Part shown: positions 15,001 through 18,000 of the stretch, one piece after another
Layout: each line of letters starts with the position of its first letter
How positions within the stretch are numbered: position 1 is the first letter of the stretch
Source of the DNA: a virus
Lineage: Duplodnaviria; Heunggongvirae; Uroviricota; Caudoviricetes
Virus record (IMG/VR): IMGVR_UViG_2698536657_000017
Location: 1 to 35,026 of that record
DNA: 35,026 bases
Strand: one strand, 5' to 3'
Position numbers: made by a program

Positions 15001-18000
15001 TGAATTCACCGACTTATCGTTCCTTGCTGACAAAAATGTTGATGGATTTCTCAACAAGATAAAGCTGCTTAATCTTCCTCCCGAAGAACTGGAAAAAATC
15101 AAGGCCAGCAAAGAGGAAGAGATAGACACGCGACTTTCCCGTCTGAATAACGATATTTACCAGAATGAAAAGGGGCTTGGTGAAAGCGATCGTGTTTACC
15201 TTGTTGTGGCTACCGTTATTGCAACGTTGGGGATTCCGGGAAAGTTAGCACCGCTGGATAAAAAAGAACTGACCTCTTCAACGGAGGAGGACTTGCGTGA
15301 TGGTGATATTATTTTCAGGAAAATAAGGAATTTTTTAAGGCTGAAAGCTGTTCCTGAAACAAAAAGAGAAATGATTTTGCGCTCGTTGCAAAATACGCTG
15401 TGGACTGAAAACATTAACAAACCAGTCAACGGTGAAAGCCAGTTAAAGCGCGTGTTTGTTAAAGTTGTTGATGATCTTGGGGAGTATTACAAAATCGGAC
15501 TGACCACTGATTTTACGGGCAAACTGTTTAATGAGATGTATCGCTGGCTTGGATTTACGCAGGACAAACTCAATGACGTCGTTCTGACACCACCTTATGT
15601 TGCCACATTGCTGGCACGACTCGCCAGAGTAAACAAAGATTCCTATGTGTGGGATTTTGCTACAGGTTCTGCGGGATTGCTTGTGGCTGCAATGAATGAA
15701 ATGCTCATTGACGCCAGAGAAAATATTCACTCACCGAATGAACTACAACTTAAGGAAGCGCAAATCAAGGCTGAACAGCTTCTTGGCCTTGAGGTGTTAT
15801 CCAGTATTTATATGCTGGCCATCCTGAATATGATTTTGATGGGGGATGGTAGCTCGAATATCCTCAATAAAGACTCGCTAGCCGATTTTGACGGCAAGTA
15901 TGGATTTGGGAAAACAGGAGAAAAATTCCCTGCGGACGCATTTATTCTCAATCCTCCGTATTCAGCTAAAGGTAACGGCATGATTTTCGTGCAGAAGGCG
16001 CTGTCGATGATGGATAAAGGCTATGCTGCAGTGATTATCCAGAGTTCAGCCGGCACAGGAAAGGCTACGGAGTACAACAAAAAAATACTCAAGGAAAATA
16101 CCTTGCTGGCAAGCATCAAAATGCCTGCGGATCTGTTTATTGGTAAATCAAGCGTTCAGACGTACATTTACGTTTTTCAGGTAAAAATTCCGCATAACGC
16201 GAAACAGGCTGTTAAGTTTATCGACTTTTCCAATGACGGCTATGCTCGCTCTAATCGCAAAAAGGCAAGAAACAATCTTGTTGATGCCGATCGTGCAAAA
16301 GAGCGTTATCAGGAGGTTGTGGATCTGGTTCACTTCGGGAAAGGTTGCCTTAATATCTTTACGGAGGATGAATATTTTGAGGGAACAATCGATCCTGATA
16401 GTGGTGAGGACTGGAATCAGACCAGGCCAGTAGATGCTAGGCCAACGCTGGATGATTTCAAAAAGACGGTAGGTGATTACCTTGCATGGGAGGTCTCGCA
16501 ATTACTGAAAAAACAAGGTGAAAACAATTTTGCGGGAAAGTAAATTCCCCGCTCAGCGATAAATTAAGAAGCGTTGAGTGGGGAGAGTTCAGGATTGGCG
16601 ATTTGTTCTATGTGAGCACAGGCTCGCTTATCTCCTCAGGAAGATTAAAACCAGGCAAAATTAAACGTGTTTCAGCAAAGAGCGATCAAAACGGTATCAT
16701 CGGAGAGTTTGATACCGAGTTTATGGATGATGCAAGGCATTATGAAAATTTTATAAGCGTTAATTTTTTTGGAGATGCTTTTTATCATCCTTATTGTGCC
16801 AGCGTAGAAATGAAGGTGCATGTTCTTACATTAAAATCAAGTAAGTCCGACTTTAATGCAAAGCGCGGACTGTATGTTGCCAGTATGATTAATAAAGCTT
16901 TAAAGGGGCGTTTTAATTATGGTCAACAGTTATCGAGTTCCAAACTCAGAGATGGAGAATATTTCATCTCATTACCAGTGAAAAATAATGAAATTGACTG
17001 GTTTTTTATGGATAATTATATAGAAGAGCTGGAAGCGGCCCATATAGAAGAGCTGGAAGCTTACTTGCTGGTTAGCGGACTCGCGGACTCGCGGACTCGC
17101 GGACTCGCGGACTCGCGGACTCGCGGACTCGCGGACTGATAAGCTATGAGCTTACACCGCAGGAATATAACGCGATTGAGCTATTAAATAGCAATAATCT
17201 TATGTGGGGCACTTATAACCTCAAAAAGTTATTTGGCCCCGCAATAAGAGGTAAGCGTCTGAAAAACGCAGATCGTATTCCCGGATCCTTGCCTTTTGTT
17301 ACTGCGGGTGAAGGCAATGAAGGTATTTCTGCATTTATCAGTAATGATGTTGTTGTATTCCCTGAAAATACCATTACGATAGATATGTTTGGCTCCGCAA
17401 AATACAGAAATTATGAGTATGGTGCAGATGACCATGTGGCAGTTGTTCATACAGAATTCTTTGACAGAAATGCCGTTATTTTCATAACAGCATCAATTCA
17501 TAAGTCTTCTTGTACCGGAAAGTTCAACTACGGGAGAAATTTCTATGCAAAAGATGCCGACGAGTTAATGGTATCTTTGCCGTCAAAAGATAATAACCCT
17601 GATTATTCTTTCATGGAGACGCTAATTTTAGCAGTACATAAACTGGTCATCAAAGATGTTGTCCAGTACACTGATAAAAAGCTGGTAGCGTACAGGCAGA
17701 TTACATCTGAGAAGGTCGTTTAGTGCAAATCCCCACCTGACAGGGTGGGGAATGGTCAGGTTATCGTGCCCTGATGCAGAAAAACAGTTTACAATCGTAA
17801 AAATCATCATATCATGACAAAAGTGGTTACATTGCCACGCAGCCGAACCCGCCGATGCGCGGGTTTTTTGTATCCGGAATCCTGTGAGTTATACGGAAAG
17901 TACACAGAAAGGAAGGTGCGACCGCAATTAATAACAAAATCTTAAAAATTGCATATGGCACTATTAGTTTTCTAAATATTGTATATTTTGAGTATTGCAG

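Follow-up and report, generated by a model that had tools for sequence, protein, structure and literature searches.

How is a protein made from a gene that offers no start codon? The question is posed by a restriction-modification locus of a tailed phage (Duplodnaviria; Heunggongvirae; Uroviricota; Caudoviricetes), known from IMG/VR record IMGVR_UViG_2698536657_000017, of which positions 1 to 35,026 – the whole stretch of DNA analysed, hereafter the window – are considered here. In this locus gene A, predicted to encode a nuclease joined to a methyltransferase, is followed by a specificity gene, S, whose reading frame is already open before A ends, and whose first canonical start codon lies within its conserved recognition domain. 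We put the probability at roughly 85% that S would be reached by programmed -1 ribosomal frameshifting at the end of A, giving both free A and an A-S fusion. According to this proposal the missing start codon reflects the fact that translation of S does not begin on its own. The features on which the question turns are as follows.

14459-16543, + strand: gene A, nuclease-methyltransferase of 694 amino acids (aa), from the list of open reading frames (ORFs) and translation; the zero-frame product ends ...NNFAGK
16519-16521, + strand: stop codon TGA in the frame of S (-1); a shift into S is possible only downstream of it
16541-16543, + strand: TAA stop of A, directly 3' of the heptamer described below; would release free A from unshifted ribosomes
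16540-17139, + strand: coding part of S, read in the -1 frame, with linker helix, first target-recognition domain and central helix; ends with TGA at 17137-17139
16603-16605, + strand: TTG, the first canonical start in the S frame, used by some annotations; an ordinary leucine codon in the motif DLF

Direct reading of the window bears out the initial annotation, in which the S frame was open from 16522 with no ATG or GTG before a TTG at 16603. The TGA at 16519-16521 lies in frame 1, the frame of S, which is open from 16522 onward; A is read in frame 2 and terminates at the TAA at 16541-16543, so that S is -1 relative to A. The peptide encoded in the S frame upstream of the TTG, KQFCGKVNSPLSDKLRSVEWGEFRIGD, contains no ATG, GTG or TTG codon. 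Nor does S have an ATG of its own that overlaps or adjoins the stop of A, as in EcoKI-type coupling: ATG, GTG and TTG are all absent from 16522-16602. That this segment is real protein had been suggested from its likeness to the beginning of the second target-recognition domain, and two results agree. The second half of S, LMWGTYNLKKLFG (17199-17237), parallels the first, with W-G-x-[FY]-x-[IL]-x-x-L-F common to both, and the Pfam domain Methylase_S (PF01420, E=1.5e-14), searched in the S frame, begins upstream of the TTG: profile position 2 aligns to the V of VEWGEF, which is residue 14 counted from the GGG at 16534. The domain covers residues 14-175 and the TTG is residue 24. The residues upstream of the TTG are thus the conserved lead-in to the recognition domain, not its variable core.

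If S nevertheless began at TTG 16603, and the open frame upstream were an untranslated leader conserved for an RNA hairpin only, then 10 residues of Methylase_S would be forfeited, because the domain alignment begins 10 residues upstream. The codon is the first standard start in the frame, its equivalent was chosen by the Prokaryotic Genome Annotation Pipeline (PGAP) in one relative (L002), and PGAP places the start of S about 26 codons after the heptamer in two others (L095 and L096). However, reading of the sequence reveals no Shine-Dalgarno sequence before the TTG; the equivalent codon is TTA in Providencia; in 25 species the first start lies more than 25 codons downstream; and the same peptide is found inside the continuous polypeptides of in-frame fusions. 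In addition, the loop and spacer of the hairpin are under protein-coding constraint, since variability there follows the codon positions of the -1 frame. Homologs were also examined for an S start at the equivalent of 16603 preceded by unconserved sequence: the upstream segment proved to be conserved as protein, and many homologs have no start at that position. A start at the TTG is therefore very improbable.

The signal that would allow ribosomes to pass from A into S lies at the very end of A, which reads gcG_GGA_AAG_TAA: the last two sense codons, together with the preceding base, make up a heptamer of the X_XXY_YYZ type.

16534-16540, + strand: heptamer G_GGA_AAG in the frame of A; proposed tandem -1 slippage site

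In E. coli, G_GGA_AAG shifts 0.28% of ribosomes alone, 3.8% with the stimulators of the insertion sequence (IS) IS911 and 43% with the IS3 pseudoknot; corresponding values for G_GGA_AAA are 0.12%, 0.51% and 17%. G_GGA_AAG ranks among the top three heptamers for efficiency in E. coli, and is the site used for lambda gpG.

The layout was followed through a comparison set of 80 loci from 80 species, the closest relatives of A (68-74% identical), in each of which the end of A was located. The set includes Firmicutes, Bacteroidota, Proteobacteria, Campylobacterota, Spirochaetes and members of the candidate phyla radiation. G_GGA_AAR is kept in the frame of A in 73 of the 80 loci – a recurrence far beyond chance. 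In 69 of these 73 the stop codon follows directly and in three it comes one codon later; in L086 the stop is mutated to TTA, with the heptamer and the -1 ORF retained. The identity of the stop varies (TAG 49, TAA 21, TGA 3), as does the codon before GGA, which may be CTG, TTG, TCG, CAG, GAG, CCG or GCG: six amino acids (L, S, Q, E, P, A) are thereby specified, and the last base is always G. The glycine codon of the heptamer is GGA without exception. In an ungapped alignment of 74 sequences (A2), entropy is zero throughout columns 13-18, even at the synonymous sites of both frames, while flanking third positions carry 1-1.7 bits. Variability across codon positions has the zero-frame pattern upstream of the heptamer and the -1-frame pattern downstream of it.

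The -1 frame itself opens a median of two codons upstream of the heptamer, and in L021, L023 and L084 it opens zero codons before (TGA-GGGAAAG-TAG), which confines the shift to these 7 nucleotides (nt). From the heptamer onward the -1 ORF runs for at least 330 codons – sufficient for a two-domain S – in 62 loci, and continuous S ORFs of 366-393 codons are found among relatives. The first ATG, GTG or TTG in this frame comes anywhere from 2 to 131 codons after the heptamer, and beyond codon 25 in 25 loci; given this scatter, no start codon is under selection. Gene callers are correspondingly inconsistent: S is annotated as starting with ATT, TTG, CTG or ATA, as truncated, or as 'pseudo'. These loci thus combine an in-frame X_XXY_YYZ, a -1 downstream ORF without conserved start and conservation at synonymous sites, as expected of a frameshift cassette.

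It is against this background that independent initiation of S must be judged. Non-canonical initiation, one of the explanations offered in the initial annotation, would have S begin at a near-cognate codon near the stop of A (the GTA or ATA overlapping the stop, or ATT 16594) or by reinitiation, the upstream peptide then being the N-terminus of free S. An ATT start was indeed chosen by PGAP in L001, and CTG or ATA by other callers in Providencia; three loci have an ATG that overlaps a TGA stop (GGGAAAATGA); and in Type I systems hsdM and hsdS are coupled via overlapping stop and start codons (PMC3510504). Yet in about 95% of loci the stop is overlapped by GTA or ATA, neither of which serves bacteria as a start to a useful extent; none of the candidate start or near-start codons is conserved, and the conserved protein of the -1 frame begins exactly at the heptamer. 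Independent initiation would also leave unexplained the invariant G before GGA, the fixed GGA, the opening of the -1 frame at the heptamer and the spacing of the hairpin that follows. The Shine-Dalgarno-like element found in many relatives is some 15 nt from the GTA or ATA, too far for initiation, and fits a stimulator of the dnaX type; a stable hairpin 5 nt downstream would occlude an initiating ribosome. As the general explanation for S independent initiation is unlikely; near-cognate initiation, or reinitiation at the stop, may contribute as a minor route.

A structure in the messenger RNA (mRNA) could act as a stimulator, and a candidate is present just beyond the stop of A.

16546-16584, + strand: stem-loop with arms at 16546-16558 and 16572-16584 (13 bp, 13-nt loop); proposed frameshift stimulator

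In the window the hairpin begins 5 nt 3' of the heptamer, and in relatives 5-6 nt, within the 5-9 nt expected of a stimulatory structure. Its predicted free energy is -23.3 kcal/mol (z=-3.9), and none of 200 shuffled sequences folds as well. Across 74 sequences the 11-bp core (columns 26-36 with 52-62) is 98.3% paired, as against 36-51% when the partners are slid, although the shuffle control for structure pairs ignores relatedness between sequences. Compensatory double changes are present at three pairs. The pair 33-55, for example, is U-A in 26 sequences, C-G in 22, U-G in 22 and G-C in 2, but never C-A, and couples a synonymous position of a leucine codon with the choice of Glu, Lys or Gln. 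RNAalifold finds the same helix independently.

Stems of different sequence occupy the same position elsewhere. L103 (41% identity) has G_GGA_AAA_TAG followed by the stem CCCCGCAGG/CCTGCGGGG, which encodes a different peptide; an E. coli allele of the L001 type has A_AAA_AAG, CAGTAA and then a hairpin of its own (-20.4 kcal/mol); and L098 has A_AAA_AAA with the stem GCCCCAG/CTGGGGC. Upstream, a Shine-Dalgarno-like element stands about 9 nt before the heptamer in 49 of 75 loci, compared with 7% of control windows, an arrangement known from dnaX. A scan of 16400-16700 against Rfam gave chance-level matches only, far below gathering scores, and the junction element is therefore covered by no described RNA family. 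Two loci with another type of S N-terminus, both with S in the -1 frame, have different sequences at the junction: gaT_TTT_CTG_TAA and then a strong GCCCCCG hairpin in L101 (2225-2290), and A_AAT_TTT_TAA in L073 (5505-5560). These sites may be other slippery motifs with the same purpose.

How the shift would proceed can be set out in some detail. Ribosomes translating A would arrive at G_GGA_AAG with tRNA-Gly on GGA and tRNA-Lys on AAG, where both the hairpin 5 nt downstream and the neighbouring TAA would delay them. Some would slip back one base, reading GGG AAA in place of GGA AAG, and go on to GTA at 16540; the shifted reading, GGG AAA GTA AAT TCC..., would yield G K V N S P L S D K L R S V E W G E F. 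Free A (694 aa) would be released at the TAA by ribosomes that stay in frame, while those that slip would produce the A-S fusion: one mRNA would thus supply both free A and an A covalently joined to a recognition module, and A plus A-S would make A2S. The signals and their conservation are seen in the sequences; the slippage, its efficiency and this stoichiometric rationale we infer. A joint supply of A and A-S is suggested by the composition of Type IIB enzymes, (RM)2S (where RM is the restriction-modification polypeptide), and by an engineered counterpart that needs free HsdM. BcgI is A2B and, once bound to DNA, is further activated by excess free A (PMC3592470); BsaXI is (RM)2S (PMC11997821); and an engineered EcoKI HsdM-HsdS fusion is functional in vivo but requires extra free HsdM in vitro (PMC3510504).

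The frame could in principle be changed in the RNA instead of on the ribosome, by slippage of RNA polymerase on GGGAAA(A/G). The dominant site is G3A3 or G3A4, and runs of this kind are too short for efficient transcriptional slippage, which depends on length. The E. coli L001-type allele has a run of A7 (GAAAAAAAG), a length at which slippage becomes possible; avoidance of A7 and U7 runs extends to all three frames, with transcriptional slippage or indel mutation as possible causes (PMC4066793). Both the exact X_XXY_YYZ dependence on frame and the placing of the hairpin at a ribosomal spacing favour the ribosome, and polymerase slippage we regard as extremely improbable.

Equally improbable is decay. 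Here the locus would be a single-chain restriction-modification-specificity (R-M-S) gene on its way to loss, broken by an indel of 1 nt or by a sequencing error, from which S is no longer made. In-frame single-chain relatives do exist, S in the window is interrupted by a repeat, and there are relatives with IS1 in S and relatives in which A is out of frame with its ATG. Nevertheless, 20 complete E. coli genomes share the 171-nt junction at 99% identity or more (100% for the 8 among the matches listed), and one deposited phage matches at 99.6% across 1 kb; sequencing error is therefore excluded. In 62 species from several phyla the two genes remain split and the S ORF intact over at least 330 codons, and a pseudogene would not be expected to retain a slippery heptamer together with a hairpin that covaries and an ORF left intact downstream. 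Decay would be marked across relatives by stop codons in S or by a raised level of non-synonymous change; the opposite is seen. Thus, from among the three explanations in the initial annotation, the frameshift into S is strongly supported, though as a conserved programmed -1 event and not an accident; non-canonical initiation and a recent indel of 1 nt are not supported.

The suggested tie to single-chain R-M-S enzymes, on the other hand, holds well: the relatives that are 41-72% identical to A include in-frame A-S fusions. When representatives of protein clusters were searched, many relatives of 838-1186 aa proved to be such fusions. One of them, P0122 (71% identity), reads ...SQILKKDSPSRGVLSQKEKELSDKLKSVKWEKK..., in which LSDKLKSVKW matches LSDKLRSVEW of the -1 frame of the window; another, L031 (72% identity), reads ...KIAKRTIPLKEKIKNVEWGEY...; and many further fusions are present at 41-47% identity. 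At the DNA level both P0122 and L031 are without heptamer and without hairpin. The match to these linkers identifies the segment upstream of TTG 16603 as a linker that is translated in the fusions, and S of the window is homologous to the linker plus the first recognition domain of the natural in-frame proteins. A third arrangement occurs in the more distant L080, L097 and L102, where a conventional S in the +1 frame has an ATG overlapping the end of A, preceded in L097 and L102 by a Shine-Dalgarno sequence. The family therefore has three ways of expressing S, and the window uses the frameshift one. Recognition domains are mostly one in the in-frame fusions and mostly two in the frameshift loci.

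Several points weigh against programmed frameshifting, or limit its reach. The 80 loci were drawn from the closest relatives of A, and the frequency of 73 in 80 refers to these, not to the whole family. An ATG or TTG lies within 13 codons of the heptamer in 28 of the 73 loci, and L019, L029 and L064 have an ATGA overlap: some independent synthesis of S may thus occur in some species. The arms of the hairpin also encode conserved residues (P-L-N and V-E/K-W-G), and part of the conservation of pairing could reflect constraint on protein; the synonymous covariation and the different stems of L103 and L001 speak against this. The window's own Shine-Dalgarno-like element is weak (AAGGTG, at about -20). 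Finally, support for a fusion protein and for -1 reading is comparative throughout.

What kind of enzyme would be made in this manner? Gene A is preceded by a Shine-Dalgarno sequence, AAGGA, 7 nt upstream of its ATG, and its product has a Pfam N6_Mtase domain (E=5e-21) and a weak match to VRR_NUC at residues 32-98. The N-terminal nuclease motif, PD..ExK, comprises P70, D71, E89 and K91, all nearly invariant among relatives. In the methyltransferase, which is of the gamma-class N6-adenine type, motif I is DFATGSAG, and in the NPPY motif (498-501) N498, P500 and Y501 are invariant and P499 nearly so; in a further comparison none of the four varied. Searches with A found no sequence match in the PDB and only sub-threshold matches (HsdM and MAD2) in NCBIfam, where S gave nothing. 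The predicted structure of the in-frame relative P0122, used in a fold search, matches HsdM/HsdS and the BsaXI RM chain (8w2q_B, E=6e-13), that is, the expected Type I, IIB and IIG relatives. In this model the A-S junction is flexible and of low confidence, and leads into a helix; such a junction would be compatible with a tether but is not decisive.

Judged from sequence, the A-S locus is a Type IIB-like restriction-modification system of the BcgI/BsaXI kind; the deposited phage record labels its copy of A 'BcgI alpha chain-like'. Nuclease and gamma-class methyltransferase are on one polypeptide; there are two Type I-like recognition domains, the first recognized by Pfam and the second present but, in the window, out of frame; and there is no separate HsdR or ATP-dependent motor, the Neisseria loci consisting of A and S only, between housekeeping genes. 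The helicase and primase genes upstream in the prophages look like a replication module, not part of the restriction system; Q and hok stand between them and A in E. coli, and an antiterminator gene does so in Providencia. A continuous R-M-S ORF is not what the window has: the reading frame of A closes at 16541-16543, and that of S is a different one.

The S product of the window is further shaped by a repeat, and a second repeat is found in A.

14468-14492, + strand: 7-nt tandem repeat GACCAGC, 3.6 copies (Tandem Repeats Finder, TRF); codons 4-11 of A
17075-17137, + strand: 8-nt tandem repeat GCGGACTC, 7.9 copies (TRF); linker between the recognition domains
17136-17723, + strand: second recognition-domain region in frame 3, open from the repeat (...LISYELTPQEYNAIELLNSNNLMWGTYNLKKLFG...); annotated ORF at 17202-17723

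In the window S would be reached only by frameshift, and the predicted fusion is 694+199 = 893 aa: A plus one recognition domain, because the 8-nt repeat, at this copy number, ends the S frame. This architecture is the same as that of the natural in-frame one-domain fusions of relatives. In silico removal of one 8-nt unit gives an S of 391 aa with both domains, and an A-S fusion of about 1085 aa. Copies number 0, 4, 6, 8, 16 or 23 in E. coli relatives, and in L091, with 6, S is a continuous 404 codons; the second domain is kept in frame by only some of the copy numbers. The repeat thus looks like a phase-variable switch between one-domain and two-domain S. The ORF beyond it (173 aa, WP_000264576.1) is annotated as 'hypothetical protein' in L001, L002 and L090, and related ORFs at the second-domain position are annotated as S subunit in L092 and L094. 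The other repeat lies in A: with three full copies of GACCAGC, A is in frame with its ATG in the window. In relatives the copies number 16-89, and the ATG of A was out of frame in all seven checked.

Other observations on these regions can be added. Across long GACCAGC tracts PGAP puts a 'YXWGXW repeat-containing protein' on the minus strand, which is probably spurious. The central helix of S (16990-17075 in the window; about 5830-5895 in L002) contains a protein repeat, IEELEA(A/Y)H, of which the window and L092 have two copies each and L002 has three; in Type IC enzymes (EcoR124I/II) the spacer of the recognition site changes when this helix becomes longer or shorter. In the E. coli relative L090 (NZ_CP027340.1, 4442-5139) an IS1 lies just after the frameshift site and cuts the S frame after 24 codons.

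Comparison with known systems shows that each component has precedents. The frameshift between G and GT of phage lambda, reportedly the work of Levin, Hendrix and Casjens in 1993, uses the identical G_GGA_AAG, and both systems belong to lambdoid phages. Close to the end of the upstream ORF a -1 shift yields, in G/GT, a short product together with a C-terminally extended fusion in a fixed ratio, and would do likewise in A-S. G/GT is not known to need a strong stimulator; the A-S cassette differs in having an adjacent zero-frame stop and a conserved hairpin, and in that its products would be an enzyme and a specificity module, not chaperones. With dnaX, and with OrfAB of IS3 and IS911, the cassette shares X_XXA_AAG, a stem-loop 5-6 nt downstream and, in 65% of relatives, a Shine-Dalgarno-like element about 10 nt upstream; the E. 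coli L001-type allele even uses A_AAA_AAG. However, the dnaX shift yields the shorter product, the shift in IS elements makes the transposase, and the Shine-Dalgarno-like element of the window is weak.

Among restriction enzymes, BcgI and BsaXI likewise have an RM polypeptide (PD..ExK plus NPPY), an S with two recognition domains and no motor subunit. Their S is described as separately made, whereas that of the window is start-less and would be reached via a frameshift from RM, and the similarity of BsaXI to A is too low for a sequence match in the PDB. AloI, CjeI and TstI have the domain order R-M-S that the frameshift product would have; but these enzymes, like the engineered EcoKI fusion, are single ORFs with one product, while A-S would give two products from one mRNA. 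The free A among these could supply the second copy of RM that a two-domain S needs. Lastly, phase variation by repeats in Type I and Type III systems (hsdS, hsdM and mod; the truncated HsdS of NgoAV reportedly arises in this way) has its parallel in the 8-nt repeat of S and the 7-nt repeat of A, both with copy numbers that vary among strains. Switching of that kind is at the DNA level, is layered on the frameshift, and leaves the missing start codon unexplained.

The window is a lambdoid, Stx-type (Shiga-toxin-type) E. coli prophage in which the order is replication genes, Q antiterminator, hok, A, S and late genes. The restriction system thus sits between Q/hok and the late genes (13480-19200), and in relatives S is followed by tRNA-Ile/Arg/Arg plus stx1 or stx2; no tRNA gene was found in 17700-19200 of the window. 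GC-rich inverted repeats lie after S at 17727-17752 (CCCCACC tgaca GGGTGGGG) and after hok at 14293-14316 (GGCGGGGGAG taat CTCCCGCCCCC); both resemble terminators and may mark the limits of the A-S transcript. Beyond the phage, A proteins about 70% identical (L010-L089) are found in Firmicutes, Bacteroidota, Proteobacteria, Campylobacterota, Spirochaetes, Saccharibacteria and Gracilibacteria, a spread across phyla that points to very extensive horizontal transfer of the whole cassette.

In the open-access literature, to which the search was confined, and in term searches of the GeneTack study, the Sharma 2014 screen of Enterobacteriaceae and the Atkins 2016 review, we found no frameshift in a restriction system. 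When all strands are joined, we lean towards the following account: that this is the first recoding event described in restriction-modification; that it is an ancient and horizontally widespread -1 cassette (G_GGA_AAR, stop, hairpin) in which S would be made only as a C-terminal extension of RM, frameshift efficiency setting the ratio of RM to RM-S and so the assembly of (RM)2S; and that Stx-type prophages of E. coli would add two hypermutable repeats, one switching A on and off, the other toggling between one and two domains and so, probably, the recognition sequence.

Several consequences follow for the family. A and S are better annotated as a frameshift pair, which bears on the prediction of specificity. 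The layout offers a simple answer to the problem of supplying two RM for each S, in the right proportion, from one mRNA, and it links the separate-subunit and the single-chain Type IIB enzymes via a translational intermediate, much as was engineered for EcoKI. Apart from those of insertion sequences, dnaX and phage tail genes, bacteria have few conserved frameshifts, and the A-S cassette, present across many phyla, is a good natural series from which to learn the requirements for heptamer, stop and hairpin. In Shiga-toxigenic E. coli the system occupies the position, between Q and the late genes, at which relatives carry stx, and is phase-variable, and may therefore affect phage exclusion and methylation-dependent phenotypes.

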